A stretch of 64,000 nt of DNA from a virus. Taxonomy: Duplodnaviria > Heunggongvirae > Uroviricota > Caudoviricetes. Location: IMG/VR virus record IMGVR_UViG_3300034357_000765. One strand, given 5' to 3'. Positions 2,290 to 63,270 of this stretch are shown piece by piece. Numbering within the stretch: the stretch's first letter is position 1; the number at the start of each line of letters is the position of its first letter. The translations under genes and the position numbers were made by a program. The notes below the pieces were generated by a model, which had not been told where the DNA came from, did not search any database, and saw nothing but the letters and a program-made list of their open reading frames with translations.

Positions 2290-2300
2290 TTTAATATATA
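2290..2300 (+). promoter_or_regulatory. TTTAATATATA(C) conserved promoter-like element upstream of the 2155-aa collagen-like gene
   Basis: Exact 11-mer 34 nt upstream of the ATG at 2334. The same 11-mer recurs upstream of six other + strand genes in the window. Confidence 0.6.
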
Positions 2301-2333
2301 CCATAGTTAATTTAAAATAAAAATTTTAATAAT

Positions 2334-5300
2334 ATGCCTAATAAGATTTCAAATAGCCAATTAAAAGCCGGATTTTTCCACTCACTTGGAAAGTTCTTTT
2401 CAGAAGATGCCCAAATACCTGGTGCGGAGCTTTATAAAAGTGCACATAATGTTAGATCGACAGAGGTTTGGATGGATATCATACCTTTTGCAACAACAGG
2501 TGCTGCAGATGCTATAGTGGCTGCCAATCCAACAATACTAAGGAAGATTAACGCTGGGTATTTGTATCCTTTACAATTTTCAAATTATCAAACTTGGTTT
2601 TTAGATTTTGGAGATCCTACATGGGCAGGATCTGGATTTAATCCTTCTAATCAATGGGCAAAACCTCTTATAAATCCTACTGACGTTACTGATGCGACCG
2701 GTCTTCCATCTAATGGTTATGAGTTTAAAATGCTTGGTAGAAACGGACTAAATTCTATTAGTTACACAAGTACTTCTTATGATGTTGACTATTTTTCAGG
2801 ATTCGTAAGATTTGATATTGGAAAAACTCCTATAGATTTAGGAAATGGATTGGGTTTTACACTCAGTAAAACTGGTCTTGAGGGTGCCGGTGATAAGTTG
2901 GCATATATTAGAAATAATGCTACTTGTGGACCAAGAGCCACTGCATATCAATACATAGGACAAAGACTTTCTAACTATAATTTTAGTGGAGGTGCTACTG
3001 GTGCTACTGGTTCATCTGCATATGATGTTTGGATTTATAATGGTGGTGTAGGAACTGAAATAGACTTTTTGGAATCTCTTAAAGGTGCTACTGGTGCTAC
3101 AGGAAATGATGGTATTCAAGGTACACATGGTACTTCAGGAACTTCAGGTATTAATGGAACTTCAGGAATCAATGGAACTTCTGGAACATCTGGTGAGAAT
3201 GGTGATAAATATAGATATCAATTTTCAACTACTCTCAATTTATCATCTTTTCCTACTACTCTTACTATTGGACTCGGACTTGCTTATAGTCCTGCACAAT
3301 CTATTATAATAGGTTTTGATGGTACTAAATATGTCGAGGCTATTGTTACATCATACAATCCTGGAACAGGTGTTATAACCTATACGATAAGTACTACGGT
3401 GGGTGCTGGTTCACACACTGGTGATTGGACAGTGAATCTTGCAGGTGCATCTGGTGGTGATGGATCTTCAGGAACATCAGGAGTAAATGGTGTTGATGGA
3501 ACTTCAGGAACTTCAGGGGTAAATGGTGTTGATGGAACATCTGGAACTTCAGGTGTTGATGGAACATCAGGAACATCTGGAACTTCCGGTGTAAATGGAA
3601 CTTCTGGAACAACTGGAACTTCGGGTACTACGGGAACTTCAGGAACTTCAGGTATTAATGGTATAAACGGGGTTTCTGGTGTTGCAGGTAATAACGGTAC
3701 GTCAGGAACAACAGGAACTTCTGGAACAAGTGGCGTAAACGGAACATCAGGAACATCAGGATTTACTGGTGCTAATGGAACATCAGGAACTTCTGGAACA
3801 ACAGGAACTTCTGGAACTACGGGTACTTCAGGTACTACGGGTACTTCGGGTACTTCAGGTGTAAATGGAACTTCAGGAACTTCTGGAATCAATGGAACTT
3901 CAGGTACTACGGGTACTTCAGGAACTTCTGGAATCAATGGAACTTCAGGTACTTCTGGAATCAATGGAACTTCCGGAACTTCTGGAATAAACGGAACATC
4001 AGGAACATCAGGAATAAACGGAACTTCTGGAACTTCTGGAATAAACGGAACATCAGGAACATCAGGAATAAACGGAACATCAGGAACATCAGGAACTTCG
4101 GGAATAAATGGAACTTCAGGAACAACAGGAACATCTGGAACTTCAGGAACAACAGGAACATCTGGAACAACAGGAACATCGGGTACTTCTGGTGTAAATG
4201 GAACGTCAGGAACTTCTGGTACAAGTGGAATCAACGGAACATCTGGAACAACAGGAACTTCAGGAACAACAGGAACTTCAGGAACAACGGGAACTTCAGG
4301 AACAAGTGGATCTTCAGGAATTGATGGAGTACCTGGACCAAATACTTTATTCTATGAATTAGGTGGTTCTCCATTGGGAGAAGTAGGAACTTGGGACACT
4401 AATAATAATGCAGATCCAACACTTGTTAATACAATCTATATAAGTAAGACTTCTATGCTTGGTCATGATGGTGGTGTTGCTACTACAAACAATGCAACAA
4501 CTTGGCTTTCTTATATAGCAGTCAATGGATTCATACAGATTTGGAATAGTGACGACGCGTCATTGTTTTCTATCTTTAGAGTATCCGTAATAAGTGCACA
4601 GGCCACATACTATCAATTCACGGTGACATATGTCGTAGGAAATGGTGCATTCCCTACACATGATGTTGCAATATCATATGTAAACAATGGTACATCAGGA
4701 AGTACAGGAACTTCGGGTGTCAATGGAACATCAGGAACTACGGGAACATCAGGAACTTCTGGAATCAACGGAACATCAGGAACTACGGGAACATCAGGTA
4801 CAAGTGGAATCAACGGAACTTCTGGAACTTCTGGTAGAAACGGAACATCAGGAACATCAGGAATAAACGGAACATCAGGAACATCAGGAATAAACGGAAC
4901 ATCAGGAATAAACGGAACTTCTGGTGTCAATGGAACATCAGGTACTTCTGGTATTAATGGAACATCAGGGACAAGTGGTATTAATGGAACATCAGGGACA
5001 AGTGGTATTAATGGAACATCAGGAACTTCTGGAACATCAGGTATTAACGGAACATCAGGAACAAGTGGTGTCAATGGAACATCAGGTATCAATGGAACTT
5101 CGGGTACTTCTGGAATCAACGGTACATCAGGAACATCAGGTATCAATGGAACATCAGGTACATCAGGTAGAAACGGAACATCAGGAACGTCTGGTATCAA
5201 CGGAACATCAGGAACGTCTGGTATCAACGGAACATCAGGAACTTCTGGTGTAAATGGAACTAGTGGTATCAATGGAACATCAGGAACTTCTGGAATCAAT

Positions 5301-8300
5301 GGTACATCAGGAACATCAGGTATCAATGGAACGTCAGGAACATCGGGTATAAGTGGTGCTAATGGAACATCAGGAACATCAGGTGTGAATGGAACATCAG
5401 GTGTGAATGGAACATCAGGTGTGAATGGAACATCAGGTGTGAATGGTGATAAGTATCTTACAAGCACTAACGCTTCGGTTACTTTATCTAACCCAGGAAC
5501 ATCTTTATCATTCACGATTGCTACAGGATTTGCATATACTATAAACCAGTCTATAATAATCAGTATTTCGGCTGGTGTCTATATGGAGGCCATAGTTACC
5601 GGATATAATTCTGGAACTGGAGCAATGACAGCAACCGTTATAAATAAATATGGTGCATCTGGATCTGGAGTCGCTATAGTCAACCTTGATGGTGCGTCTG
5701 GTGGTGATGGTACATCAGGAACATCGGGTGTCAATGGAACATCAGGAACTTCTGGCATCAACGGAACATCAGGAACTTCTGGCATCAACGGAACATCAGG
5801 AACTTCTGGCATCAACGGAACATCAGGAACTTCTGGTATTAATGGAACATCAGGAACTTCTGGTATTAATGGAACATCAGGAACATCGGGTGTCAATGGA
5901 ACATCAGGAACTTCTGGCAGAAACGGAACATCAGGAACTTCTGGTATCAACGGAACATCAGGAACGTCTGGTATCAACGGAACATCAGGAACATCGGGTG
6001 TCAATGGAACATCAGGAACTTCTGGTATTAATGGCACATCAGGAACTTCGGGTGTCAATGGAACATCAGGTACTTCAGGTAGAAACGGAACATCAGGAAC
6101 ATCGGGTGTCAATGGAACATCAGGAACATCAGGTGTTAACGGAACAAGCGGTACTTCAGGAACAGGATTTAATACTATATCAACCCCTGCGACAAGCAGA
6201 GTATTGATTGCAAATGGTACTTCAACAAATAGTGCAATAGCACAAACTAATCTTACTTTTGATGGATCACAATTAGTTGTTACAGGAACGGTAAAAATAA
6301 CAGGTGGAACTCCAGGCACAAACAAAGTACTTACTTCATCAGATGGTGTAGGTTCTGCGGTATGGTCAGACGCTTCGACCGTAGTAACCAACGGATCTGG
6401 AGTTACTATTGCTTCACTCAACGCTTCGAATTTGGGAACAGGTGCTCAGTTCTTTAAAGACAAAATTGGTTCAGTATTAAACTTTAGAACTATAAAAGGT
6501 GGTGAAGGATTTAAAGTTACTCAGGGCGTAGATGAAATACTCATTAGTAAAGACTTACTTATTGGACCTGATACGTATATCTATATCAAATTAGATACTA
6601 CTTCATTAGGCGCTGCGACTAGATCTCAGTTCTATAACATGAAGAACACCATCATGAAATCCACACTTCAAGATTTATATGCCACAGGAAAGAGAGTGTC
6701 TGAAGGAAACTTAGATCCTGCAACAAATGGTTCTAATAGATACGATACACACGTATTTGTTCAGGATGACGGAAGTGAACAACCATTCCTTGCTATAGTT
6801 TCCGCACTTGGAGACGCTCCAAATACTAACTTCCCTGCAGATGCGACTAATATTATATCAATGTTCTTCATAGATGAGTGTAGTAGTTCATATACACCAA
6901 GTGATAGTTCACCAATCGCAAGTTCTTATATGACTGCAACTTTTCAAAGTAACATAACTACTATGAAATCACGCATAACTTCAATTAGAAGTACGGGTGT
7001 AACATTTAAAGGATTTGTTTTTAACGTGAGAACTGGAAATCATGGTGCATTTGAATCACTTATTGGTCACCTTAACACTAACGCAGGATTGTATGCGGGT
7101 ACTTATGGACTTAATGATGATTCTGAAAGATGGGGTGTAAAATGTATACCTAAAGTAGTAAATGCTTGGGGAACATTGATTCCAAATACTATAACCACTG
7201 CAACTTGGCCTGCGATCGATGCTGCTGCATTAGATGCGACCAGAAGATTTAGAACATATGAACAATATCTTTTAGAAGTAGTAATAGATTCTGTTAATGA
7301 TGCAGGTGCTCAAAGAGAAATCAAAGCAGAAGTTTCATCAGGTGCGGTATTGGAAGACCAACCAACAATCGATTTAGAACATAGTATCGCTATATGGACC
7401 TCTAGAAAGAACATTTCTAATCCAAACTATAGCTCGGCTAAAATATATGGTCAGTTTTATTCGGTATTAACCGGAACACAGAGTGTTGATATAAATAATA
7501 GTGGTTATTCTATTCCTGCATTTTCTTCAAATACGATATATGTAAACTGGGAAATTGGTAATAATCAAAGAGTATCACTTGCTTCAGCTACCGGCAATGT
7601 TATAATGAACTTTATCAATCCTAAGGCAGGTGCTCACTACATTCTTAAAGTTAATCAAGGAACAACACCAAGAACAATAACTTTTGGAACTAACTATACC
7701 GGTGCGTTGAATCATGATGCAAATATAACTTCTATTGGTGCTGTGGTATTAGATCCAACAAACTATCAAATTGATCAACTACCAAGTTCTGTAACTGTTA
7801 TTAGAATGTGGTTTGATGGTTCTACTTATCATACGGAGTCTTTTGGAGATAGTAACTCTAGTAATGCTAGTGTTAATACTACGGATTTAGATCCTGCCAT
7901 AACTCTTACGCTAAATACACCACCAACGGTTCCAGCACCTATTGTTGGTGATAGGTATCTAATACCAACAACACCTGCCGCAACCGGTGCATGGACTGCA
8001 AAAGAAAACCAAGTTGCCGAATGGGACGGAACTACATGGGTTTACACCGTTCCGGTTGCAGATAATGTTATTTTCATAACAGATACTCTTACTACTTTAA
8101 GATATAACGGAACTGCCTGGGTTACTTATAAAGGTGTTGCTATATTACAAAACGGTAACAAGCTTACAAACCACATAAACATTGGAAGTAATGATAACTA
8201 CAACCTAAACTTCAAGACTAACGCCATCCAAAGAATGACAATCTTGAAAGATGGCAATGTCGGTATTGGTTTAACAGGACCTAATGCTAAGCTTCAGGTC

Positions 8301-8801
8301 AGAGCTACTCCTGCAACTACTGGAACTACGGTATTTAAAGTAGACGGAAACGTTGGTGAGCTTTTCACTGTGACTGATAACTTAACAGGATCACTTATGT
8401 CTGTGAATGATATATCTGGTCTTCCTATCTTAGAAGTATTTGACAACAATACTATCTTGATGGGAGATTATCAAGCACCATCTCTATACTCTACTACAAA
8501 ATCTGTAGTCGGAGTAGTTACAAACAACGTAGTGTATCAATTTGTGGCTTCTCTTTACACTTCTGTATTCTTTGAATACAACGTTCAAAACTCGACAAAT
8601 CTAAGAGCAGGAACTATTATGGCAGTTTGGAACAATACTACTATAGAGTTTACAGAGACTTCTACTATGGATATTGGAAACACATCAGGTATAAACTTCA
8701 ATGTGGTTCTTACGACAATATTAGGCGTGGTTTATGTACAGCTTAGAGCAACAACAATAAGTAGTGGATGGACGATAAAATCTATAATAAGAACAATATA
8801 A
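2334..8801 (+). CDS. giant collagen-like fibre protein (2155 aa) with three proline-free G-T-S/G-I-N/G-V-N triplet arrays and a C-terminal globular region
   Basis: Long runs of [13 protein letters not shown]... (Gly every third residue) at about aa 250-668, 785-1043 and 1122-1282. These are separated by beta-rich segments. The gene is preceded by the promoter-like motif and followed by a terminator. Confidence 0.85.
3085..4340. repeat. collagen-triplet coding tandem array 1 (9-nt/27-nt periodicity)
   Basis: Repeated ggaacttcaggaacttctggaatcaatgga-type units. The antisense strand yields artefactual PEVPDVP ORFs. Confidence 0.9.
4690..5465. repeat. collagen-triplet coding tandem array 2
   Basis: Same periodic GGA ACA TCA GGA... 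units. Confidence 0.9.
5700..6180. repeat. collagen-triplet coding tandem array 3
   Basis: Same periodic units. Confidence 0.9.
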
Positions 8802-8808
8802 AAAAGTA

Positions 8809-8836
8809 AAAAAATCCAAGTTATCTTGGATTTTTT
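8809..8836. terminator. intrinsic terminator (atccaag ttat cttggat) with flanking A and T runs
   Basis: Inverted repeat immediately after the stop of the 2155-aa gene, followed by tttttt. Confidence 0.65.
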
Positions 8837-8855
8837 CTTTTTATGTATAAAAATA

Positions 8856-8866
8856 TTTAATATATA
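8856..8866 (+). promoter_or_regulatory. TTTAATATATAC promoter-like element
   Basis: Exact motif 45 nt upstream of the ATG at 8911. Confidence 0.6.
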
Positions 8867-8910
8867 CAACATAACTTGTTTTGGAAAGTGAAAAAATAAA
8901 GTTTTTTTAA

Positions 8911-11195: not shown

Positions 11196-11209
11196 AAAAA
11201 ATAAACATT

Positions 11210-11242
11210 TTATCCATATCATATATAACATGATATGGATAA
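11210..11242. promoter_or_regulatory. perfect 13-bp inverted repeat (ttatccatatcat / atgatatggataa) with a 7-nt loop that contains the start codon of the next gene
   Basis: Read directly. The ATG at 11235 lies in the right arm. The loop and arm contain a TCATATATAAC motif variant. Confidence 0.6.
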
Positions 11243-27749: not shown

Positions 27750-27760
27750 TTTAATATATA
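27750..27760 (+). promoter_or_regulatory. TTTAATATATA element
   Basis: Exact motif starting 2 nt after the stop of the 1675-aa gene and 19 nt upstream of the ATG at 27779. Confidence 0.55.
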
Positions 27761-28937: not shown

Positions 28938-30044
28938 TTAACCAATAGTTAAGAATATTTTTCTACTCATTCTGTCGACAGATAGAACTTTCACTTTAAG
29001 TTCTTGTCCAGGAATAAACTTTTTACCAAGTTTCTCCATTTCAGATGTGTGGATCAATCCAACAGTCTCTGCGTCAAGATTGATTAGAGTACCAAATTGT
29101 TTGGTGTCTTTAACAACTCCATCCAATACTTGTCCGTTTTTGATGTTGTCCCAAAGGGTCTCTCTCAAAATCTGAGTAAGGATGATTTTGTCTTTGATAA
29201 TCTCTTTCACGTAGAATTCGATTTCAAATCCAGGCTTGATGTCGCCAAGTTTGTCTTGCCATTCAGGGTGTACGTTTGCTTTGTGGATCATACCAGTCAA
29301 GCATTCGTTGAACTCTACGAATACACCAAATGGTGCAGTTCCTGTAACGTGTCCGTTGTAGACCGTTTCTTGGTTAAGTTCTTTGATTGCAGCACCACTA
29401 AGAGTGTGAAGGTATTTTCTTCTACTCACGATGTAAGTTCCCTCATGCTCAGAAAAAGACTCAATCATTACTTCAAAAGTAACACCAACGATAGAAGTTG
29501 GATCAACTAACTTGTTGATTCCTGCTAAAGTGTTTGGCATGAATCCTGGAAGTGTAACACCACCATTGTAAATCTCTACTTCGTATCCAGCTGGGTTAAG
29601 AGCTTTAACTAATACAGTTACTGATTCACCTTCTTCTAAAGATTTAAGATTTGCGTGAGCTCTTGATTCATAAAGAGTCGCAATACTTCCTTTGATAAGG
29701 TAGTTTTTTTCGTTGATGTCAACGATGATAACATCTACAACATCACCAACTTCGATGTTTTTAAGATATTTTGCTTCATTTGGTCTGTCGTCTACTCTAA
29801 CGTAGTCTTTGTAACCAGCAACTTCAAAAAGATATTGATCTCCTTTGTGACCAACATATACAGAAGGAGAAACCGCTCCTTTTTCCGGAACCTGAACTTC
29901 AAAATCTCCGTAGAGTTTTTCTAACGCCAAATACTCAGGTGTCTTTTTAACGTTTTTGTTTTTTTTACCATTTCTGGTAGTGAAAGAAGTGTCTTCAAAT
30001 AAGTAAGCCAATTCTTCGTTTCCGATTGTGTTATTCATATTCAT
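28938..30044 (-). CDS. ribosomal protein S1-like protein with four tandem S1 (OB-fold) RNA-binding domains
   Basis: Four segments of about 70 aa each, with a G-x-V-x-G-x-V and ...GL.H.SE... S1-domain pattern (GDVVDVIIVDI..., GESVTVLVKAL..., GHVTGTAPFGVFVEF..., GQVLDGVVKDTKQFGTLINL...GLIHTSE). Confidence 0.7.
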   Translation of the reverse strand: MNMNNTIGNEELAYLFEDTSFTTRNGKKNKNVKKTPEYLALEKLYGDFEVQVPEKGAVSPSVYVGHKGDQYLFEVAGYKDYVRVDDRPNEAKYLKNIEVGDVVDVIIVDINEKNYLIKGSIATLYESRAHANLKSLEEGESVTVLVKALNPAGYEVEIYNGGVTLPGFMPNTLAGINKLVDPTSIVGVTFEVMIESFSEHEGTYIVSRRKYLHTLSGAAIKELNQETVYNGHVTGTAPFGVFVEFNECLTGMIHKANVHPEWQDKLGDIKPGFEIEFYVKEIIKDKIILTQILRETLWDNIKNGQVLDGVVKDTKQFGTLINLDAETVGLIHTSEMEKLGKKFIPGQELKVKVLSVDRMSRKIFLTIG

Positions 30045-30091
30045 ATTTTTTAGAGTGATGATATTTATAGTTTGTTATTTGTTAAAGTTTT

Positions 30092-30484
30092 CTATTTTAT
30101 TCTTTTTATTTTATTCTTTGCCATATAATCTCTGACTCTTGCAGCATCTTCATATTTCTCTTCAAATAGAAGTTTATCCAACCTTTCGTTTAAGTCTGCT
30201 TCTATTTCTTCCGGAGTCTTTCCCTTTTCGAGAAGTTTGATGTCATCTGTAAATGAACTATAATAATCGTTCATTTTTCCTATGTCCAAAAAGTATATAG
30301 GTTGTTTGGCTTTATCATCATCTTCCGAAGAAAGATTTGTGAGCTTTCCATTTTCTGAAACTTTTTTGATGAATTCTGGACTGAACGCAGAATTTTCTAT
30401 AAGATATTTAGCCAGGTGATAAGGCCTGTTTTTGAACATCTTTAGTAAGATTACTAAGTTTCTGTATAAATCCTCATTTTCCAT
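30092..30484 (-). CDS. hypothetical protein with a C-terminal UVR-like motif (FEEKYEDAARVRDYM). The start is trimmed to the ATG at 30484.
   Basis: The ORF-track N-terminal extension to 30559 overlaps the divergent gene. MENEDLYRNL begins at the ATG at 30484. The C-terminus resembles the UvrB/UvrC UVR helix (EFEEAARLRD). Confidence 0.4.
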   Translation of the reverse strand: MENEDLYRNLVILLKMFKNRPYHLAKYLIENSAFSPEFIKKVSENGKLTNLSSEDDDKAKQPIYFLDIGKMNDYYSSFTDDIKLLEKGKTPEEIEADLNERLDKLLFEEKYEDAARVRDYMAKNKIKRIK

Positions 30485-30510
30485 AAATATTGTATCCAAA
30501 AAATGAAATA

Positions 30511-30523
30511 AGTTTATTAATAT
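30511..30523. promoter_or_regulatory. TTATTAATATATAG motif variant in the divergent region
   Basis: Lies 10 nt upstream of the ATG at 30533. Its reverse complement faces the minus-strand gene that starts at 30484. Confidence 0.45.
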
Positions 30524-30532
30524 ATAGAGATA

Positions 30533-30999
30533 TGAAACATTTAGTATTATTTGAAGCATTCAATAGACCTTACATAGACAGAAGAGCTATGGCTTCCAGA
30601 AAGCCGGTAGAGATTGGTTATTTAAAACAACCAGTTGAGATAAGGATCGAGATTGAAAAGCCACCACATGCTGCCGATAGACAATGGAGACACGGTGTGA
30701 GTGAAATGATAACGGACGATGATATCATTGAAACCGTAGAATTAGCGATTGAAGAGTTGACTATCGCACTTATGCAGGATCAGTTCGACATCTATCAAAA
30801 CGAGGACAACTACCCAACAAGAGGAGTGAAGGCAGGAGAGCCAAACAGATTCGTAATAAGAAACAAAACAAACGATTTGAACGTTGTTTGTATACTTCAG
30901 CCAGGTGATTATGAGTTTAAACTGACCGTAATAACTATAATGACAAAAGAAGATTTTAAAACAAATCCAGGACAATACGTTCTAGAAGTTGAATCATAA
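30533..30999 (+). CDS. hypothetical protein. The start is taken as the ATG at 30533 (MKHLVLFEAF).
   Basis: The ORF-track start at 30490 would overlap the divergent gene and the motif. The ATG at 30533 sits just after the motif. Confidence 0.45.
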
Positions 31000-34614: not shown

Positions 34615-35034
34615 TTATATTGTTTTTATATTATCGAATACTTCTTTCAAATCATCCTTAGACAATTTATTTAAAGCTAAGTTAAGTAATTCTTTTTGAT
34701 TTATCATAGCTTCTTCTAAAAAAGAAACATAATCTTCTTTTTCTCCAAGTCCAAGAACGAGTAGTTTTCTGTTTCTTTCAAAATCTGTACCACCAGACAT
34801 ATTGAACTCTAAACCTATTTCTGATAGTTCTTCTCTAAATAATTTTGCGTATTCATTTGGATTGATGTCAACCGGCGGGTCAAGTAAAAATTCGACTGGT
34901 TGATAAGGTAATTCATGTAATCTATCACAAATTTCTTTAGAATCTTTTAGACCAAGTCCTGTATGATTTTTCAATATCTTTACAAACATCAATTTGTTTA
35001 GACAATTTGTTTTGATTTGTAATTTTACTTTCAT
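34615..35034 (-). CDS. protein with a ribosomal bL12 (L7/L12) C-terminal-domain-like N-terminal module and no bL12 N-terminal anchoring domain
   Basis: KVKLQIKTNCLNKLMFVKILKNHTGLGLKDSKEICDRL...PVEF...LSEIGLEF aligns with the bL12 CTD [36 protein letters not shown]...ALEEAGAEV. The TGLGLK signature is present. Confidence 0.4.
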   Translation of the reverse strand: MKVKLQIKTNCLNKLMFVKILKNHTGLGLKDSKEICDRLHELPYQPVEFLLDPPVDINPNEYAKLFREELSEIGLEFNMSGGTDFERNRKLLVLGLGEKEDYVSFLEEAMINQKELLNLALNKLSKDDLKEVFDNIKTI

Positions 35035-35651: not shown

Positions 35652-35701
35652 TGTCTGTGTTTTATTCTACAAATATACGCAAACAAATTCGAAATCTATA
35701 A

Positions 35702-35712
35702 TTTAATATATA
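35702..35712. promoter_or_regulatory. TTTAATATATA element in the divergent region; its reverse complement TTTTATATATTAAAT faces the CoaE-like operon
   Basis: Exact motif 18 nt upstream of the ATG at 35730. Confidence 0.55.
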
Positions 35713-38436: not shown

Positions 38437-38440
38437 AGAC

Positions 38441-38451
38441 TATATATTAAA
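38441..38451 (-). promoter_or_regulatory. TTTAATATATA element (minus-strand reading) 4 nt upstream of the ATG at 38436
   Basis: The + strand reads tatatattaaa at 38441-38451. Confidence 0.5.
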
Positions 38452-38518
38452 AATCTTCTTCACTTTTACGATTCGTTCTAAAGCGTATCGTCTTCTGTGC
38501 ATGACACGAAACATTCTA

Positions 38519-38737
38519 TCAACGCTTTGTGACAGCTTCTGTATTCTCTCTCCATCTACTATATTGGATGTCTTCAAAAGAGGTAGATGATCCAACACTA
38601 TTATGTCTTTCTTCATAGATTCGTTCTATTTTTGTCTTTCTACCATATGCACGAAACATTTTCTCCATACGTAAATGTATTTCGGTTCCTGCATCAGTTA
38701 TCGACTGAGCTTTTCCTTTGTCGTATAAATAAAACAT
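38519..38737 (-). CDS. hypothetical small protein
   Basis: ORF only. Confidence 0.35.
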   Translation of the reverse strand: MFYLYDKGKAQSITDAGTEIHLRMEKMFRAYGRKTKIERIYEERHNSVGSSTSFEDIQYSRWRENTEAVTKR

Positions 38738-40011: not shown

Positions 40012-40068
40012 AATATTATACAAATATAGTCAAAATATGTTTGATAAGATAATACAAACCGTAGAAGA

Positions 40069-40080
40069 TTTAATATATAC
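40069..40080. promoter_or_regulatory. TTTAATATATACT element in the divergent region between Sir2 (-) and the 2888-aa gene (+)
   Basis: Exact motif 23 nt upstream of the ATG at 40102. Its reverse complement AGTATATATTAAAT faces the Sir2 operon. Confidence 0.6.
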
Positions 40081-48782: not shown

Positions 48783-48793
48783 TTTAATATATA
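48783..48793 (+). promoter_or_regulatory. TTTAATATATA element only 4 nt upstream of the ATG at 48798
   Basis: Exact motif. Confidence 0.55.
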
Positions 48794-54141: not shown

Positions 54142-54849
54142 CTATCTAACAATCAAAAGATATCCAGACTTTCCGGGCTCATTCTTTGAATGATGCCCCA
54201 TAGAGTCTACTTTTGTCTCATCTCCATCAAGCTTTATACCAGAAAGCTTTTGTTTACCCAGTATTCTTTTTTCACCATCACACTTTTTACAATGTGTCAT
54301 TCCAATCTTACCCTGACCAGAACAAAAAGAACACGGATTTCCGGCATAGTCTTTACCACTTCCTTCACAGAAGTCACAACCATCATCCGCATCAAATGTT
54401 CTTAGAATGTTTCCATCAACATCTCTTATGACTATTTTAGAAGAAAGGTCTTTTCCAGAACCATCACATGTTTTACATTTGACATATCTTTCATATTCGA
54501 CAGATCCGTTGAAGTCTTCACCAACCTTTATTTGAATATTAAGAACTTCAGAGTCTTTAAACTTTTCTCTCTTACTTTTAACATCATCGTACTCAAGCTC
54601 AGAGTTTATGTTGAATAACTCAAAATATTCATTATAGTTATTTCCAAACTTAGACTTTAAGTCATAGTCAGATCTTTCCTTTGAACAAAGAACGTCATAC
54701 GCTTCTGTAAGCTCTGCGAAGAACACCGCATTACCACCCTTATCAGGATGATGTGTAAAAGAAAGCTTGTAGTAAGCTTTCTTTATCTGCTTTTCTTCCG
54801 CATCTCTTGCGACACCCAGCAAGGCGTAGTAGTTCTTTCCTAAGTTCAT
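54142..54849 (-). CDS. DnaJ-like co-chaperone: a J-domain plus four CxxCxGxG zinc-finger repeats, with no DnaJ C-terminal domains
   Basis: YYALLGV...HPDKGG is a J-domain with the HPD motif. Zinc-finger repeats are CKTCDGSGK, CDFCEGSGK, CSFCSGQGK and CKKCDGEKR. Confidence 0.8.
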   Translation of the reverse strand: MNLGKNYYALLGVARDAEEKQIKKAYYKLSFTHHPDKGGNAVFFAELTEAYDVLCSKERSDYDLKSKFGNNYNEYFELFNINSELEYDDVKSKREKFKDSEVLNIQIKVGEDFNGSVEYERYVKCKTCDGSGKDLSSKIVIRDVDGNILRTFDADDGCDFCEGSGKDYAGNPCSFCSGQGKIGMTHCKKCDGEKRILGKQKLSGIKLDGDETKVDSMGHHSKNEPGKSGYLLIVR

Positions 54850-55246: not shown

Positions 55247-55249
55247 AAT

Positions 55250-55807: not shown

Positions 55808-57521
55808 TTCCGAATATGTCGTTTTCTAAATAACTTACTTCTTCTATAGAAGAAAAAACTTCTTTGTTTATTTTAAGAATCCTATCGAACATCTCTTGGT
55901 TCAGAATCGCGTGGTGAACTACAAATATATTGATGTTATACTCGTTTGCGAACGATTTTAAGAGCGTTAGTATAGAATCTATTCCCTCTATATCAATAGA
56001 AGAAAAGACTTCGTCTAAGAAGAGAATATTGATGTGTCTCTTAGTACGTATAAGTTTTAGGTAAGCAATAAGGATTGCGATGTTCACTCTTTTGTTTTCA
56101 CCGGTAGATAAAGAATCACTTTCAATCAAAGATCCAAATTGTCTTATTTCTGCAGTAAATGTTTCATCTAACTTAACACCAAATGGTATTCCCATCTTAC
56201 TAATGTTTTCTCCAATAAAGTGATTTAAAGGTTTGATAATACCTGCTATGATAGATTTCTTTACACCATCTTCACCAAAGATTCTGTTTAGTTCTTTGTA
56301 GAAAAGTTCTTTGTCTTTACTAACTGCAACATTGTCTTTACTTAAAGACTTTTTATCTTCCAACTCACTAATAGACTTTTCAAACTCTTCGATATTTGGA
56401 GATACTACTTTAGATTCTTGGTCTTTCTTTCTGGTAAGTTCTTCAATCTTAGATTTACAATTTTTTAAGAAATAACTCATATCATTAAAAGTGGTTGTAG
56501 TAGTTCCTGCAATCTCTTTCAGCTTTGTTTGTCTATCCTTAATAGTTTGTATATTTGCTTCTATTGTAGATTTTACGTCTTCGAATTTGGTCTTCTTTTC
56601 TACAAGTGCTTCTCTTAAAGAATTAAAGTGATCAGAATCAAAATCTGTTCCACAAGTGGGGCACTTCCCGGAATCATATAAATCAATCTCTCTTTGAACG
56701 TTCTTAATGTCGTTCTGAACCGTGATATATTGTTTTTTCTCTGCATCGATTTCTGTTATTAGTTGTTCTTCTTTTTCTTTGATTTTATCGACCTTTTCTT
56801 TTAAAGCCTTATAGTCGTCTTTCTTAGCAGTCATCTGTTCCATAAGTTCGTCTATGTCTGCTTGAATATTCAACTTTTCTTTTTGAACAGTTCTTTCTAT
56901 AGATTTTTGAATAGAACCAATAGAGTCTTCTAAAGTTTTTATTTCTGAATCCAAAGAAGCGATTCTTGTCTTATTAGATTTATTAAGGTCTTTAAGAATT
57001 CCGTTTAAAATGTTGATCACTTCAAGGTTGAAAAGTTTGTCTAATAAAAGCTGTTTTTCTTCATTTGATAGTGATATAAAGTTTTTGAAGTCATTTATTG
57101 ACATTGATATGAAAGACTTGAAAGTCTCAATATCCATACCAACATACTTTTCGATTGCGTCGTCGATGTTTGATTTTCCTGCTCTCTCATTAAGCATTCC
57201 ATTTTCCCAAAGCTCAAGTTTGGACGGTGATATTCCTCTTTTGATTTCTACGTCAACACCACCAGATTTGAATGATATTCTGTTTAAAAGTTCTCCGTTG
57301 ATTCGGTTTGGTAATGTAGATAGTGTACTCCACTTCTTTTGTCTACCACCTCTTACTTTACCGTAAAGTGTGTATTCAAAACTTGAAAGAAAACTTGATT
57401 TACCATTTCCGTTGTTTCCAACTAAAAGTATTAGCTCTCCTTTTTCTGTATTTAACTTTACCGTCTGTTCGTTGTTTCCAAATGACTTAAAGCCTCTTAT
57501 TCCTATTTCGCTTATCAGCAT
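55779..57521 (-). CDS. Rad50/SbcC-family recombination ATPase (T4 gp46-like)
   Basis: Walker A LVGNNGNGKSS, a long coiled-coil with a GKCPTCG zinc hook, an ABC signature LSTGENKRV, and Walker B / D-loop ILFLDEVFSSID. About 580 aa, as for phage gp46. Confidence 0.8.
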   Translation of the reverse strand: MLISEIGIRGFKSFGNNEQTVKLNTEKGELILLVGNNGNGKSSFLSSFEYTLYGKVRGGRQKKWSTLSTLPNRINGELLNRISFKSGGVDVEIKRGISPSKLELWENGMLNERAGKSNIDDAIEKYVGMDIETFKSFISMSINDFKNFISLSNEEKQLLLDKLFNLEVINILNGILKDLNKSNKTRIASLDSEIKTLEDSIGSIQKSIERTVQKEKLNIQADIDELMEQMTAKKDDYKALKEKVDKIKEKEEQLITEIDAEKKQYITVQNDIKNVQREIDLYDSGKCPTCGTDFDSDHFNSLREALVEKKTKFEDVKSTIEANIQTIKDRQTKLKEIAGTTTTTFNDMSYFLKNCKSKIEELTRKKDQESKVVSPNIEEFEKSISELEDKKSLSKDNVAVSKDKELFYKELNRIFGEDGVKKSIIAGIIKPLNHFIGENISKMGIPFGVKLDETFTAEIRQFGSLIESDSLSTGENKRVNIAILIAYLKLIRTKRHINILFLDEVFSSIDIEGIDSILTLLKSFANEYNINIFVVHHAILNQEMFDRILKINKEVFSSIEEVSYLENDIFGNGQIGEETY

Positions 57522-57532
57522 AATATATAAAA
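57522..57532 (-). promoter_or_regulatory. TTTTATATATT motif variant abutting the gp46-like ATG
   Basis: The + strand reads aatatataaaa immediately 3' of the cat start triplet at 57519-57521. Confidence 0.35.
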
Positions 57533-57567
57533 TATTTTTTAATTTATACCGATTTATTGAAATAAGT

Positions 57568-57918
57568 TTATTCTTTTGTCTCTATATCTTCTGGGTCTAT
57601 TTCATCTGTTATGAAAGTAGTTTCACCATCATAATCTAAATACTTTGAAAAGTCAACATCGTCCATTCTAGTAAGAAGTTCTTCACATGGTATAAGTTTT
57701 TTGAGAACAGATTCTACCAAATCTTTATAACCTGACCAAAGTTCTATCTTTGTTCCTATCTTTTTTTCAATCTCTTCAGAAACGGTCAGAGCAAGATTAT
57801 CAGGTGTATAAAAAATGGTTCCCTCAGAGAAGGAACCATCACAATTGACAGAAAGTAGTACCAAAATACCACCATCCATCTTACCCATATAGTCTACTAT
57901 GTCTATTTTAATTTCCAT
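57568..57918 (-). CDS. hypothetical acidic protein (116 aa)
   Basis: ORF only. Confidence 0.45.
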   Translation of the reverse strand: MEIKIDIVDYMGKMDGGILVLLSVNCDGSFSEGTIFYTPDNLALTVSEEIEKKIGTKIELWSGYKDLVESVLKKLIPCEELLTRMDDVDFSKYLDYDGETTFITDEIDPEDIETKE

Positions 57919-58126
57919 CTAAAAGCTCGGTAAGTTTTTCATCTCTAAAATCTACAAGATAACCACTTTTGATAAGTGTATTCATTATAGATATACCCAT
58001 CTCTTTTCTACCATCCTGAATAGAATAAAGCATGTCTTTATAATAAGAGTGTATCTGATCTCTTTCTTGCTGGTCTTCTAGTTTATGTACTTTATTAAGG
58101 TCTAAATAATAGTTTTCAATTTTCAT
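57908..58126 (-). CDS. hypothetical small protein
   Basis: ORF only. Confidence 0.4.
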   Translation of the reverse strand: MKIENYYLDLNKVHKLEDQQERDQIHSYYKDMLYSIQDGRKEMGISIMNTLIKSGYLVDFRDEKLTELLDGN

Positions 58127-58134
58127 TAAAAAGA

Positions 58135-58410
58135 TTAGATTTTGTCGCCAACGATAAACTGCAATTTTTTGAATTTATCATCAGTATCGGTGAAGATGAT
58201 TTCCACCTTGTCGATGTCTTTGAATTCTTTGGCCTCACCTGTGAACTCATTAACCATCACGTCTTTTTTATATACGATATCTATTCCTGGTTCTTCACCT
58301 AAGAATCTTCTCATATCTTCTTTTATTTGAGATAACTTCCAGTCATCTGTTTTGAAGTTTATCTTTGCGATATATTCTTTTATCGCCATTTCTTTCATTG
58401 AACCAATCAT
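58135..58410 (-). CDS. hypothetical protein (91 aa)
   Basis: ORF only. Confidence 0.45.
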   Translation of the reverse strand: MIGSMKEMAIKEYIAKINFKTDDWKLSQIKEDMRRFLGEEPGIDIVYKKDVMVNEFTGEAKEFKDIDKVEIIFTDTDDKFKKLQFIVGDKI

Positions 58411-58440
58411 GTCTTTTATATTGTTTTTTAGTATATTTGT

Positions 58441-58776
58441 TTAAAATCTTCCACCTCTATCTATGTAGTAGGTATTGCTAGATTCTATTATATCAAAGTT
58501 CTCGTGCATCGCCTGACATTTACTTTTAAAAGTTGCTATGTCTTCTTCATCTAAGTCAAACCATTCTCCTGATATTTTCTTAGGTTTCAAAGACCTATGA
58601 AAAGTCGCTTCTATCTTTCTTGCCCATTTCGAAACAAAAGAATCCACTATTATCAGCTCTGCTGCGTTTCCTGTTTTAAACTCTTTTATTCTTTCTGGAA
58701 TGGATCTTTTGGTTATTCCTATCTTGTATAGTTTTTTACCGTTTGCATCTGAAGAAATCAAATAAATGTTTATCAT
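58441..58776 (-). CDS. T5orf172 / GIY-YIG-like domain protein
   Basis: YKIGITKRSIPERIKEFKTGNAAEL matches the T5orf172 (MUG113-like) signature. An AATATATAC motif variant sits 3 nt upstream of the ATG. Confidence 0.6.
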   Translation of the reverse strand: MINIYLISSDANGKKLYKIGITKRSIPERIKEFKTGNAAELIIVDSFVSKWARKIEATFHRSLKPKKISGEWFDLDEEDIATFKSKCQAMHENFDIIESSNTYYIDRGGRF

Positions 58777-58816
58777 GAAGTATATATTCTCGCTTCATGA
58801 CTCCCATCCGATATTT

Positions 58817-59047
58817 TTAAGAATGATTTCCACAAATACCTGGAGTACCAAGAGTGCCATTAGAACCTATAGGACCATCCTTCATTACTGGATAAAGACT
58901 TTCATCTTTGAATATCTTTGAGATTTTCATTCTTCTGGACATAGACAATCCACTTTGCCTTATACCTTTCATCACTTCTGGTGGAAGCCAATAGTCGGAG
59001 TTTCTCTCGGTCGTATAGACACCTGGACTTTTGAATATAGTTGTCAT
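58817..59047 (-). CDS. hypothetical small protein
   Basis: ORF only, overlapping the upstream gene. Confidence 0.3.
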   Translation of the reverse strand: MTTIFKSPGVYTTERNSDYWLPPEVMKGIRQSGLSMSRRMKISKIFKDESLYPVMKDGPIGSNGTLGTPGICGNHS

Positions 59048-59526
59048 AATATAGTATTTGATTCTGTTCCGCCGTATTGGAAATCCAAATAGAAAAGTTC
59101 TCCTCTGGGTCCTACTGACTTTTTGTAGTCTGGGTGGTCTTCTACTTTCATCTCTTCAAATTCTTTGTCTTCGACGATTGATTCAATCTTTCGGTCCCTA
59201 TTTTCTATCTTCACGTCTTGTCGGATCGATTCCATCTCTGGGCCTGAGTTTCCACCACCGATTGGCATAACAGGAACTATGTCAAGACCTACCGTTTTTG
59301 CGAATATTTGTTTGGCCATTGGTAGAAGAGTTGGAAAATCTTTGTTTGTGGTATTTGATTCGGTATTTGATAAGTCTTTCAAATCTCCAACCGTACCCCA
59401 ATGATTATTCGTAGAATGCATCTCTGCATATTCCGACATCCAATCAGCTTTGGATCCGGTCATACCCATCCTTTCAAGAATTGGAGCCCACTTCTTAATA
59501 GTATCTTCTTTTGAAGGTATATTCAT
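59044..59526 (-). CDS. hypothetical protein (160 aa)
   Basis: ORF only. Confidence 0.45.
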   Translation of the reverse strand: MNIPSKEDTIKKWAPILERMGMTGSKADWMSEYAEMHSTNNHWGTVGDLKDLSNTESNTTNKDFPTLLPMAKQIFAKTVGLDIVPVMPIGGGNSGPEMESIRQDVKIENRDRKIESIVEDKEFEEMKVEDHPDYKKSVGPRGELFYLDFQYGGTESNTIL

Positions 59527-59563
59527 GATTTTTGCTTTTCTTTTTATATGAAAAGCGTATAGT

Positions 59564-59857
59564 TTAGTTTAATGATTGGTAAGTAGCTTTGATTTCGTCT
59601 TCTAACGCAGCGAAATCACTTTCTTCTATTTGTTTAGAAAACTCTCTTTTGAACCAGTTTATCATTTCTTGAATAACAACTTCTTCAGCTTCTCCGTTTC
59701 CATTACTAGAGTAGAATTCATCATCATCAGACCACTCAGAGATTTCTTTAGTAACCATTGAAGAAACTTCTTCTTCTGAGAAATGTTCTCTTATTTTTAC
59801 TATAGCGAAATCTATATCAAGACCTGCGTTTTCGTTATATTTTCTAAGATGTTTCAT
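59564..59857 (-). CDS. hypothetical acidic protein (97 aa)
   Basis: ORF only. Confidence 0.45.
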   Translation of the reverse strand: MKHLRKYNENAGLDIDFAIVKIREHFSEEEVSSMVTKEISEWSDDDEFYSSNGNGEAEEVVIQEMINWFKREFSKQIEESDFAALEDEIKATYQSLN

Positions 59858-59860
59858 TTT

Positions 59861-60823
59861 CTATTTTAGTTTTATGTGAATATATAACCAATAAGAGTTT
59901 GGTTTAACACTGATAAGTACTTTACTACCCCAGTTTTTAGAAAGAAGCCACGTTACAAAGTTGTTTTTAAGATTCATCAATTCTGATTCATCCAACTTAC
60001 CGTTGTCCCATTTTCCTATTCCTTGATATCCAAAACTCATCACTCTATCTTTTAGTTCTGGTTTAAGTTTTCTTTCGTGGTATCCTGGATTGTACTGAGC
60101 CATTTCAGACTTTACTTTTCCTAATACAATAATATCATTATAAGAAAGATTTACAAGTTCCTTTTTAAGAGCAAATGCTGATTTAGACTCTATGTTGTTC
60201 AACCATTTTATGACCGATTGATTAAGTTTGAAGGTACCAAACGCGGTGAAGTTTCCATCATACGATACTCCGTATTCAAGTTCACCATCACATTTAACAC
60301 CAAAATAAAGACTTACCTCGTTCTTTCCATAGTCTATGTGCTCCAAGTATGGAACTAAAGATTGGAATCGACTGAAGACTTGTTTTACGACACCTGCGTC
60401 TAAGTTACCATAGAAGTAAAATAAAAGGAAGTTTTCAGGACATCTTTCTATTTCAGAAGCCTTTTCTTTTTGTCCTAATGCCGTCAAAGTTTTTAAGAAA
60501 GAATGAAATATTCCTCTACCTGCTTTTGTTATTTCTGATTCGGTTAAAGCTTCTATATCAGTAGATGCTGCAATGATAGGTTCTTTTTCTTCAATCCCAA
60601 CTTCTTGATATTGTTCAATCTGCTGCGTTATTTCTTTTTGAGTTCTTTCATCGAGAAGATTTATAGCATTTGCAAGTCTTATATCAGAACCAATCTCACC
60701 AATATATCTATTTACTATGTTTTTAACATATTCATCTTGATACAATGATTCAACCCATTCACCGATAGAATCAAATCCATCGGCTTGGTTTTCTTTTATG
60801 AACTCTAAATATCTTTTTATCAT
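59861..60823 (-). CDS. hypothetical protein (320 aa)
   Basis: ORF directly downstream of the collagen-like gene. Confidence 0.5.
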   Translation of the reverse strand: MIKRYLEFIKENQADGFDSIGEWVESLYQDEYVKNIVNRYIGEIGSDIRLANAINLLDERTQKEITQQIEQYQEVGIEEKEPIIAASTDIEALTESEITKAGRGIFHSFLKTLTALGQKEKASEIERCPENFLLFYFYGNLDAGVVKQVFSRFQSLVPYLEHIDYGKNEVSLYFGVKCDGELEYGVSYDGNFTAFGTFKLNQSVIKWLNNIESKSAFALKKELVNLSYNDIIVLGKVKSEMAQYNPGYHERKLKPELKDRVMSFGYQGIGKWDNGKLDESELMNLKNNFVTWLLSKNWGSKVLISVKPNSYWLYIHIKLK

Positions 60824-60838
60824 AGTCTATATATTCTT

Positions 60839-63232
60839 TTAGATAGTCGTAACTCCTGTTATTATTCCCGAAATCACCGTAACAACTGATGCAGTACCAA
60901 TAGAGTATGTTCCAGACCAACCAGAAACAGAGTTGATTGACATCGTTCCAAATATATTTACAAAAGAGCTTGCTGTTCCTATTATTACGTTTCCTTTTAC
61001 ACCAGTACCTATTCCTAAACCAGGAGTTATAAATATAGAACCGCCATTGTAATCTCCATCACCAAGTGCATCTTGAGAGGCATTTGATCCAATCAATCTA
61101 ACATTATATCCAGGTCCATACTGATTGTCATTTCTATTATATGGTTGCAAATAAACATCACCCCTTGGTCTTAATCTAACTGCACTACCATCTTTACCTG
61201 TAGTAAGCCTCAAATCATATTTGTTCGCAGATATTATAGAAGATGGTAGTCCTGAAAAATCTCCTATATCATAGTTTAAAGATAAACCATATTGATTCAA
61301 TGGATCAATATTTATTGTTGTTTTAGTTCCTTCAGATACTTTATAAACACCTGGTCCGACAAATTTTATTTCATTTGTAGACTGAGAATAGCTAGCACCT
61401 GAAGTTATTGATAAAATATCAACCGTATTTAGCACTGTATTTGTCTTTTCGTCGTATGTAGGTACTGCTGTAAATCTCTCTACCCAGTTTGTACCATCAG
61501 ATACACCATACACACCACCAGGATTTCTAAGATTTGACCAAACTCCAAATGGTGCAGCTGTTTTTTCGCCATAACCAAGAACCAATTTTATATCATTTGG
61601 TGAGTTGAAGTTAAAAATCATCTCCCATACTATAGTTGGGTTGAAAAGAAAATCACCAGATTCATCGTGACTACCTTCGTATCTTATTCTGAATATCTCT
61701 TCTGCCACGTCGTCGAATCCAAAGTAATATCCCTGAAGACTATTATCACCAGCACCAACAAATATCGCAGGCGGTACAACAAGACCAGGTGCAATAGATT
61801 GTGATGCAGAACTACTCGCACCAAAAGTCAAATAGCTATTGGTGTTTAGCCAAACAGAGCTATATGTCGTACCTAAGAAGTTTATATCCCATGGTAGTAG
61901 TATCTCATAAGAATCATTATTTACGTCTACAAAATAGTCTCCTGGTAATAATATATTTGGATCTAAAAGGTTAAAATCATACGATGATAAAGAAAATATA
62001 TTATTTATTATATCTAAACTCCCACTAACACCTGAAGTTCCTGAAGTTCCGGTTGTTCCAGAAGTTCCGGTTGTTCCTGATGTTCCAGAAGTTCCTGATG
62101 TTCCGTCAACTCCAGAAGTTCCTGATGTTCCGTCAACTCCAGAAGTTCCTGATGTTCCGTCAACTCCAGAAGTTCCTGATGTTCCTGATGTTCCGTCAAC
62201 TCCAGAAGTTCCTGATGTTCCGTCAACTCCAGAAGTTCCTGATGTTCCGTCAACTCCAGAAGTTCCTGATGTTCCTGATGTTCCGTCAACTCCAGAAGTT
62301 CCTGATGTTCCGTCAACTCCAGAAGTTCCTGATGTTCCTGATGTTCCGTCAACTCCAGAAGTTCCTGATGTTCCGTCAACTCCAGAAGTTCCAGAAGTTC
62401 CAGAAGTTCCATTTTCACCTGGAAGTCCTTGAGCACCTTCTATTGCACCCATATCAATCCACCCATCAGAGTTTGCAACACTTTGTGAAAGACCTAAAGA
62501 TGCTGTAGGTCCATAGACCCAAACATGTGATGTATCTTGTAGGATATAAGAATCAAAGTTATTTGGTGGTGTTATAGAACTCATAGTACCTACAACTAGT
62601 GTAAGTCCTGCATAATCTGGGAATATTCCTAATATTGTAAATGTAGAACCTACTGCACCTCTTTCACCGGATGTTCCAGAAGTTCCTGATGTTCCGTCAA
62701 CTCCAGAAGTTCCTGATGTTCCGTCAACTCCAGAAGTTCCTGATGTTCCAGAAGTTCCTGATGTTCCAGAAGTTCCTGATGTTCCTGATGTTCCAGAAGT
62801 TCCTGATGTTCCGTCAACTCCAGAAGTTCCTGATGTTCCGTCAACTCCAGAAGTTCCTGATGTTCCGTCAACTCCAGAAGTTCCTGATGTTCCAGAAGTT
62901 CCTGATGTTCCAGAAGTTCCTGATGTTCCTGATGTTCCAGAAGTTCCTGATGTTCCGCTTGTTCCTGCAGTTCCGGTTCCAGTACCACTAGTACCGCCAG
63001 TCTGATCTATCCATTCTAAGTCGTAGTCAGTTCCACTAACTTTTGCCAATACTTGACCTCCAGTTCCACCTGCAGGAACAAGTGGTAAACTTGCTAAAGA
63101 TTGAGATACTCCCAATACTAAGTCTTCTAAATATACGAAGTTACCATCAAACTGTAAAATAGAAAGTCTTTGTCCTGTTTCACTTCTTAGTACTAATGAA
63201 CTTTGAGTTATTCCTGAATGTATAATGCCCAT
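60839..63232 (-). CDS. collagen-like fibre protein with two G-T-S/G-V-D triplet arrays and a C-terminal globular domain. The start is trimmed to the ATG at 63232.
   Basis: [13 protein letters not shown]... arrays. The ORF-track start at 63274 is a TTG. The ATG at 63232 reads MGIIHSG. Upstream is a TTTTATATATAG motif variant. Confidence 0.85.
62000..62990. repeat. two collagen-triplet coding tandem arrays, at about 62000-62440 and 62650-62990
   Basis: Periodic gttcctgatgttccgtcaactccagaa units. The antisense ORFs here are artefacts. Confidence 0.9.
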
Positions 63233-63257
63233 GTTATAATTATAATTTTTATATACT

Positions 63258-63270
63258 CTATATATAAAAA
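63258..63270 (-). promoter_or_regulatory. TTTTATATATAG motif variant 26 nt upstream of the collagen-like gene ATG
   Basis: Minus-strand reading of ctatatataaaa. Confidence 0.4.

Follow-up and report, generated by a model that had tools for sequence, protein, structure and literature searches.

The window described here is a 64,000-nucleotide (nt) stretch of a viral genome (Caudoviricetes; IMG/VR record IMGVR_UViG_3300034357_000765), and the element in question is an 11-base box, TTTAATATATA, which recurs in its narrow intergenic gaps and is likely to be part of a phage-specific promoter. The window has a GC content of about 35% and is densely coding. Intergenic or coding status was assigned from simple calls of open reading frames (ORFs) beginning with ATG, which give 54 genes and leave 1,981 bases, or 3.1% of the window, as intergenic. 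The gene products include a collagen-like tail-fibre protein of 2155 amino acids (aa), a tail-spike-like protein, a prohead-protease-like protein, an NAD-dependent ligase, an SbcC-like protein, Sir2 and DnaJ proteins, an M16 peptidase, an S1-domain protein and a 199-aa sigma factor.

By tblastn, the closest matches of the window are the huge-phage records LR745206.1 (634,780 bp) and LR756502.1 (642,428 bp), whose counterparts of a 1082-aa protein and of the sigma factor are about 70% identical to those encoded here, and synteny with both records spans positions ~12,000 to 61,000. LR756504, LR756501/3 and the Lak phages are more distant relatives by tblastn, and a megablast search of 11 kb of the window against GenBank phages gave no match, nor did a scan of IMG/VR for exact 50-mers. 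The window is a fragment of a megaphage from a Bacteroidota-infecting clade; the Mahaphage clade holds genomes of more than 634 kb, for which Bacteroidetes hosts have been predicted (Al-Shayeb et al., PMC7162821). The identical 199-aa sigma factor is found on 44 public contigs, indicating that this megaphage lineage is widespread in public metagenomes, and homologs with at least 80% identity occur on contigs of up to 687 kb. Genome-wide statistics were taken from LR745206, a complete relative at ~70% identity, assembled from 14 pieces.

Nine exact copies of the box are found in the window:
2290..2300, plus strand: exact TTTAATATATA, 33 nt before ATG 2334 of the 2155-aa collagen-like tail-fibre gene, after a terminator hairpin at 2218-2252
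8856..8866, plus strand: exact box, 44 nt before ATG 8911 of the 626-aa tail-spike-like gene, after a terminator hairpin at 8808-8837
16527..16537, minus strand: exact box, 105 nt upstream of the sigma-factor ATG 16421, of the subclass AAACT-TTTAATATATA-N6-TATAAT
19416..19426, plus strand: exact box in a divergent region, 21 nt before ATG 19448 of the 1082-aa virion-module protein, which is followed by a 1675-aa ORF
27750..27760, plus strand: exact box in a 30-nt gap between same-strand genes, 18 nt before ATG 27779, with no terminator upstream
35702..35712, plus strand: exact box in a divergent region, 17 nt before ATG 35730 of a 36-aa ORF and 81 nt before ATG 35794
38441..38451, minus strand: exact box, 4 nt before ATG 38436, predicted leaderless
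40069..40079, plus strand: exact box in a divergent region, 22 nt before ATG 40102 of a 2888-aa ORF
48783..48793, plus strand: exact box in a 29-nt gap between same-strand genes, 4 nt before ATG 48798 of a 1780-aa ORF, predicted leaderless

Dinucleotide shuffling of the window predicts 0.22 exact copies, and none of 100 shuffled sequences reached nine; with up to one mismatch allowed, 22 copies are present against 7.6 expected. All nine exact copies are intergenic, although intergenic DNA makes up so little of the window, and all nine are oriented toward the next same-strand gene, at distances of 4 to 105 nt from its ATG. A weight matrix trained on LR745206 alone yields, at 13 bits or more, 15 intergenic matches and one coding match in the window. 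Copies of the box are also kept at syntenic positions at ~70% protein identity: the one at 19416 is matched by an exact copy at the same position in LR756502 and by a one-mismatch copy in LR745206, and the one at 35702 by an exact copy at the syntenic position of LR745206. At 38440-38451 on the minus strand, the box plus one G (TTT AAT ATA TAG) forms the last three codons and the stop of a 58-aa ORF (38440..38616, minus strand).

In addition to these, more divergent copies precede five further genes:
2001..2011, plus strand: variant AATAATATATA, two mismatches with the core TAATATATA intact, 22 nt before ATG 2034; 14.6 bits with the LR745206 matrix
30516..30526, plus strand: variant ATTAATATATA, one mismatch, 5 nt before ATG 30532 of a 155-aa ORF
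63259..63269, minus strand: variant TTTTATATATA, one mismatch, 26 nt before ATG 63232 of a collagen-like protein
60828..60835, minus strand: weak, core-only copy AATATATA, exactly 4 nt before ATG 60823 of a 320-aa ORF
58781..58788, minus strand: weak, core-only copy AATATATA, exactly 4 nt before ATG 58776 of a T5orf172/MUG113-domain gene

The variant at 30516 sits within the 5' end of an opposite-strand ORF (30092..30559), and the position of the variant before ATG 63232 argues against a TTG start at 63274 for the collagen-like gene. Both collagen-like genes (2334-8801 and 60839-63232) have the box or a variant upstream. Other variants of the box include TTAATATATA, TTTATATATA and forms ending in ...ATAG. 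Plus-strand positions 57519-57548, within the 46 nt that separate two minus-strand genes, hold two degenerate copies, CATAATATATA and TTTAATTTATA; LR745206 has, at the matching place, an exact copy 4 nt before an extra plus-strand gene of 212 aa, and the copies in the window look like the relic of a lost gene.

The motif was first noticed in a sequence-only reading of the window, which listed eight of the nine exact copies, all at the positions given above, and missed the one upstream of the sigma factor. That reading proposed to count the motif in intergenic against coding DNA, and the count bears it out, with every exact copy of the window and 73 of 80 in LR745206 falling between genes. The one-mismatch copies it placed before ATG 30532 and before the collagen-like gene are likewise present. 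Its description of the context was too broad in several respects. The motif was said to mark the start of nearly every transcription unit, an overstatement, as several units open with a host-type box (see below) or with neither box; it was said to lie mostly just after intrinsic terminators, which is true of two of the nine copies (2290 and 8856), and mostly before giant structural genes, where four of the nine copies precede ORFs of more than 1000 aa. The copy before ATG 2034 was counted as having a single mismatch and has two. Similarly, the supposed one-mismatch copy before the T5orf172 gene (58441..58776, by Pfam) is GAGAATATATA, with three mismatches and an exact match in the 8-nt core only. 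Lastly, the copy attributed to the gp46/SbcC-like gene (57538, plus strand) points away from that minus-strand gene and is not its promoter.

The same pattern is found at the scale of a complete genome. Of the 80 exact copies of TTTAATATATA in LR745206, 73 lie inside the intergenic 8.7% of the genome, and TTTAATATATA is the most over-represented intergenic 11-mer there, with 71-73 copies against ~2 expected from a first-order Markov model of intergenic DNA; its core TAATATATA, with 149 copies, is the most frequent intergenic 9-mer. Chance occurrence in AT-rich DNA was considered as a cause and rejected on the basis of this expectation. The box is present in four of four sampled environmental Mahaphage genomes, in which the identity of the sigma factor ranges from 74% down to 35%. 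Altogether, the motif is real and clade-wide, and it is almost certainly regulatory.

A second intergenic family of LR745206, TATATTTGTA, with 64 copies, corresponds to the -7 box of Bacteroidota sigma-A promoters, TAnnTTTG. In the window, this host-type box precedes three genes or operons, in divergent intergenic regions shared with plus-strand copies of the phage box:
19371..19378, minus strand: host-type sigma-A -7 box TATATTTG, 4 nt before the ligase ATG 19366
35670..35677, minus strand: host-type TATATTTG, 18 nt before ATG 35651 of a CoaE-like operon
40021..40028, minus strand: host-type TATATTTG, 9 nt before ATG 40011 of the Sir2-family gene

The two classes are almost mutually exclusive, with both boxes present within 60 nt upstream of only one of 205 genes in LR745206.

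The spacing between box and gene was measured from the end of the box to the next same-strand ATG, at 162 intergenic TAATATATA sites and 97 TATATTTG sites of LR745206. For the phage box, 38 of the 162 sites lie at exactly 4 nt, 20 at 5 nt and 6 at 6 nt; for the host box, the spacing is 4 nt at 14 of the 97 sites. Both distributions are two-peaked, with the range of 8-16 nt nearly empty and a second mode at 17-29 nt, and two-peaked spacing recurs in LR756502, LR756504 and LR756501. In Flavobacterium psychrophilum, the sigma-A box has been mapped to positions -12 to -5 relative to the transcription start (PMC9723704). Since the host box ends at -5 (PMC9723704), at a spacing of 4 nt the A of the ATG falls on +1, and because the phage box has the same distribution of ATG distances as the mapped host box, it probably spans -15 to -5. 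T is preferred at -1 and A at +1, and the fifth base after the end of the box is an A in 75% of the sites without a nearby ATG.

On this placement, transcription would begin 5 nt past the last A of the box, usually on an A; among the predicted start sites in the window are A 38436, A 48798 and positions ~19431, ~27765 and ~40084. A box 4 nt (up to ~7 nt) before an ATG would give a transcript starting at or beside the start codon, that is, a leaderless mRNA, and the remaining sites would give leaders of ~14-25 nt. Leaders of 1-12 nt would be avoided, and the empty zone at 8-16 nt would fit leaders too short for binding of the 30S subunit. We lean toward this position of the start site and toward the existence of a leaderless class, on the basis of the spacing and base-preference profiles. 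In the window, the class with 4-5 nt comprises the genes starting at ATGs 38436, 48798, 30532, 58776 and 60823, plus the ligase behind its host box; the exact 4-nt spacing of that host-type box indicates that the predicted leaderless design is not confined to the phage box.

A box so close to the start codon could also act in the mRNA and not be a promoter at all, as a translation enhancer of the non-Shine-Dalgarno type. Such an AU-rich stretch might, for instance, recruit ribosomal protein S1 or the S1-domain protein that the phage itself encodes at 28938..30044. About 40% of the copies lie 4-7 nt before an ATG, in the position of a ribosome-binding site, and huge phages carrying S1 rarely show Shine-Dalgarno sequences (PMC7162821). 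However, over half of the copies are 17-105 nt away from the ATG, and TATATTTG, an established promoter box, has the same distance distribution. The box is found on only ~15% of genes, upstream regions being generally A-rich without a TATATA signal, and the A at the fifth position past the box persists where no ATG is near. Moreover, one copy in LR745206 precedes, by 18 nt, the tRNA-Met gene at the head of an array. A role confined to translation is improbable in light of these data, and the box is very probably a promoter element. In LR756502 (~38530-38562), a copy TATAATATATA was also observed 9 nt upstream of a tRNA-like sequence (GCGGGGTAGGGAAGTGGTCATCCCGAG...) that is not called by ARAGORN.

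The two boxes differ in what surrounds them. In LR745206, the host-box class shows a -33 TTTG element (G at 40-48% at -33/-32) and a T at -16 in its positional profile, and TTTG occurs within -42 to -17 at 39 of 97 host-box sites vs 20 of 162 phage-box sites. For the phage-box class, neither the positional profile nor a k-mer contrast of the region -42 to -17 revealed a -35/-33 element or other upstream partner; T is enriched at -15/-14, and A weakly at -31/-30 and -25. The lack of a class-specific upstream element points to a single-element promoter of the extended -10 type. The phage box also departs from the sigma-A -7 consensus: its eight aligned positions read AATATATA, with A in place of G-5 and T-7, and the -33 TTTG feature is missing from the TAATATATA class. 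A subclass of the form AAACT-T(T)TAATATATA-N3-6-TATAAT precedes the sigma-factor gene, in both the window and LR745206, and tRNA arrays.

The core of the box, TATATA, is palindromic, and perfect 16-bp palindromes, TTTAATATATATTAAA, are found between divergent genes in the relatives (LR745206 362259-362274; LR756502, L004 33490-33505). This symmetry could be expected of an operator bound by a phage DNA-binding regulator that accompanies the true promoters, a role that might alternatively be filled by an RNA-processing site. Yet the box is always oriented along the gene downstream of it, no other conserved promoter-like element is found beside it, and gaps of 29-30 nt leave no room for a separate promoter, so that an accessory site of this kind seems very remote. 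The palindromes lie 5-9 nt from each ATG and consist of two overlapping, back-to-back copies of the box, and the sequences at 19416/19421 and 27750/27755 of the window are imperfect versions of them.

The genes behind the two boxes fall into different sets, as seen from the first genes scanned in LR745206 (127 behind the phage box and 55 behind the host box). Phage-box genes encode portal, head decoration, endolysin, RNA-ligase/tail-fibre attachment and peptidase proteins, and also SbcC-like, UvsX-like, PhoH, DNA methyltransferase and NUDIX proteins. Host-box genes encode ligase, RNase H, polynucleotide kinase, nucleotidyltransferases, HNH proteins and ATPases, and none of the 55 scanned is recognisably structural. 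Host boxes tend to share the strand that carries most of the genes, and many phage boxes lie on the other one. In the window, the phage box stands before the genes for the tail fibre and tail spike, before the giant ORFs, and before the M16 peptidase unit and the operon of the sigma factor and protease. The box would drive middle and late genes (virion, lysis, recombination, repair, the sigma operon and at least one tRNA array), and the host-type box would drive early genes of nucleic-acid metabolism, often on the opposite strand.

The best candidate for a protein that reads the box is encoded in the window itself:
15822..16421, minus strand: gene of a 199-aa sigma factor of the extracytoplasmic function (ECF) type, candidate reader of the box, heading an operon that continues with the prohead-protease-like gene

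This protein scores 82.8 bits against the TIGR02937 sigma70-ECF model, with a cut-off of 42.9 bits, and contains Pfam regions 2 and 4_2; among solved structures, SigW is the closest. It is represented by the only sigma homolog that phmmer detects among the 909 ORFs of LR745206, where a second one was looked for and not found. A crude, motif-only search for the catalytic motif of RNA polymerase (NADFDGD, then DxDGD) in LR745206 and the window gave nothing credible, and no large protein of LR745206 has it. With one sigma factor and two promoter classes, assignment of the phage box to this sigma is parsimonious, and as the sole sigma found, in a phage where no polymerase was found, it is a plausible reader. 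The box would be read by the host core RNA polymerase together with the single ECF-type sigma of the phage. Also in favour of this sigma, all four sampled Mahaphage genomes have the box along with a sigma homolog, and PTm1 and MA9V-1, jumbo phages with no sigma hit, do not have the box. The box also lies upstream of the sigma-factor gene itself, at 105 nt in the window and ~90 nt in LR745206, and is degenerate there in LR756502. A conserved stretch, TTAACGG(C/A)A(A)T, possibly a regulatory site, was observed 20-60 nt upstream of the sigma start in LR745206, LR756502 and LR756504; the window shows no clear counterpart. The assignment of the box to the ECF sigma is plausible but could go either way, as the points weighed below suggest.

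A precedent for such a system is phage phiEco32, in which middle and late promoters consist of a single element, tAATGTAtA (AATGTA centred at -11.5), recognized by the host core RNA polymerase with the phage sigma factor gp36 (PMC12276001, PMC4331800). As with gp36-type promoters, a single AT-rich consensus of the -10 region without a -35 element is repeated here before many phage genes, and the 9-mer TAATGTATA of phiEco32 differs from TAATATATA at one position. The genetic layout is also alike, with a phage-encoded sigma, no phage polymerase found by motif search, host-type promoters for the early genes and a phage box for the middle and late ones. In contrast, the sigma factor of the window is a canonical ECF-type protein with regions 2 and 4, and gp36 falls below the Pfam threshold for region 2; the element of phiEco32 is centred at -11.5, and the box here would lie at -15 to -5; and the host is a member of the Bacteroidota and the genome is ~8 times larger. 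Late promoters of phage T4 carry TATAAATA at -10 and are read by gp55 with gp33 and the sliding clamp; gp55 has no region 4 and requires gp33 and gp45, and most late genes of T4 are encoded on a different strand from the early ones. The T4 late element, like the box, is AT-rich and restricted to -10, and the strand bias of the genes is similar. The systems differ in that the sigma here has a conserved region 4 and that the class of genes behind the box includes recombination genes and is not strictly late. With canonical ECF systems, in which the sigma operon is autoregulated, the phage shares a sigma of the ECF superfamily and a box upstream of its own sigma gene (in the window and its nearest relative), and differs in a box that is all A/T, without AAC and CGT.

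Several observations weigh against the ECF sigma as the reader, or against parts of the scheme as a whole. The -35 AAC and -10 CGT elements of canonical ECF promoters (~16-17 bp apart) are absent, and the region 4 helix of the sigma, NLSTIKSQIRNGR, is well conserved though the box has no -35 partner for it. No box was found within 230 nt upstream of the sigma gene in LR756504 and LR756501. Lak-A1 encodes a sigma with 32% identity, yet lacks the box. The window sigma has no significant similarity to gp36 in BLASTP (E = 0.18 over 57 residues), so the phiEco32 precedent is a working analogy of function and not of descent. The tRNA argument is thin, with one clear case of a box before a tRNA among 59 tRNAs. 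The scarcity of leaderless transcripts in studied Flavobacteria (5.5% of mRNAs in F. psychrophilum, PMC9723704) counts against the leaderless class, as does the fact that a box at 4-7 nt occupies the position of a ribosome-binding element. Furthermore, all of the support comes from sequence statistics, and the gene calls behind it are simple ATG-ORFs. As a separate observation, in the sigma of LR756501, a phage of 735 kb, ~90 additional residues separate one helix of the region 4.2 helix-turn-helix from the other (L019 ~46573-47440), which would be odd for a domain binding a -35 element and fits promoters without one.

The intact region 4 next to a box without a -35 partner, and the missing box upstream of the sigma gene in distant relatives, are also what could be expected if the phage box were read by the host sigma-A as a variant -7 box, perhaps with the help of a phage appropriator, and if the ECF sigma served a smaller regulon. 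MotA and AsiA of T4 are a precedent for small phage proteins that appropriate the host sigma. The phage box has A-11, T-8 and T-6 in common with TAnnTTTG, matches TATATTTG at five of eight aligned positions and stands at the same distance from the ATG as Bacteroidota sigma-A promoters (PMC9723704). It differs from them in having A for the invariant G-5 and T-7, in lacking the -33 TTTG and in carrying an extra T-rich extension at -15 to -13. Moreover, the two classes of box are nearly mutually exclusive and precede different sets of genes, and the box is absent from PTm1 and MA9V-1, PAU-like jumbo phages of Flavobacteriia without a match to the sigma. Reading by sigma-A is thus unlikely, if less so than the operator or translation roles.

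Taken together, the evidence favours a class of phage-specific promoters, shared by a clade of Bacteroidota megaphages, with T(T)TAATATATA as their -10-region element; it would occupy the position of the host box TAnnTTTG and work without a -35/-33 element. This whole scheme, in which the box serves middle and late genes and the ECF sigma is its reader, is considered likely on the pattern of box, genes and sigma. The promoter role that had been proposed from the first look at the sequence gains indirect support from the restriction of the box to intergenic DNA, its orientation, its conservation in synteny and across the clade, its host-box-like spacing, the mutual exclusivity of the two boxes and the copy before a tRNA. 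The absence of a TTTG element from the motif, noted at that stage, is confirmed, and it is the ligase, the CoaE-like operon and Sir2 that are preceded by the host-type TATATTTG. The label of a "late" promoter fits the virion and lysis genes behind the box but not the recombination and repair genes found there too, which make the class middle plus late. Overlooked at that stage was the constant spacing of 4 nt, with the leaderless mRNAs that it implies. No earlier description of the motif as a phage promoter, of promoters in huge phages or of leaderless mRNAs in Bacteroidota phages was found in the literature searched.

Other features of the window touch this scheme less directly. Perfect long hairpins with A-run/T-run flanks at 2218-2252, 8808-8837 and 11209-11243 resemble bidirectional terminators; the last lies just before ATG 11235, and no box follows it. 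The k-mer spectrum of the window is dominated by collagen-like Gly-X-Y repeats (GGAACATCAGGA and its relatives, up to 82 copies) in 2334-8801 and 60839-63232. A block at 28938-30559, with the S1-domain gene and the 155-aa gene, runs in the opposite orientation to its counterpart in both LR745206 and LR756502, with the flanking synteny intact. Genes of a host-takeover type are found on the minus strand at 34615-35034, with a weak match to the L7/L12 C-terminal domain below the Pfam cut-off, at 28938-30044, encoding the protein with S1 RNA-binding domains, and at 54142-54849, encoding a DnaJ-like protein.

Promoter sets of a phage sigma are a kind of system that is already known; what is added here is the predicted leaderless design and a readable regulatory code for the largest phages. 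Phages of 0.6-0.7 Mb have not been cultivated, and for most of their genes no function is known; the code of host box vs phage box, which is clade-wide, would allow ~200 transcription units per genome to be sorted into temporal classes from sequence alone. The box also corrects start codons, as for ATG 63232 over TTG 63274. Leaderless mRNAs in the predicted numbers would be out of the ordinary among Bacteroidota, and they matter for the question of how huge phages redirect translation in the host. In its boldest form, which we regard as doubtful, an ECF sigma with an intact region 4 would read an 11-bp, all-A/T extended -10 element without a -35 and so run the middle and late programme of the largest known phages, with nearly half of the promoters firing onto the start codon and flooding a host poor in leaderless mRNAs with such transcripts. 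If true, this flood could keep the translation of phage messages apart from that of the host, perhaps in concert with the S1-domain protein and further translation proteins of the phage.

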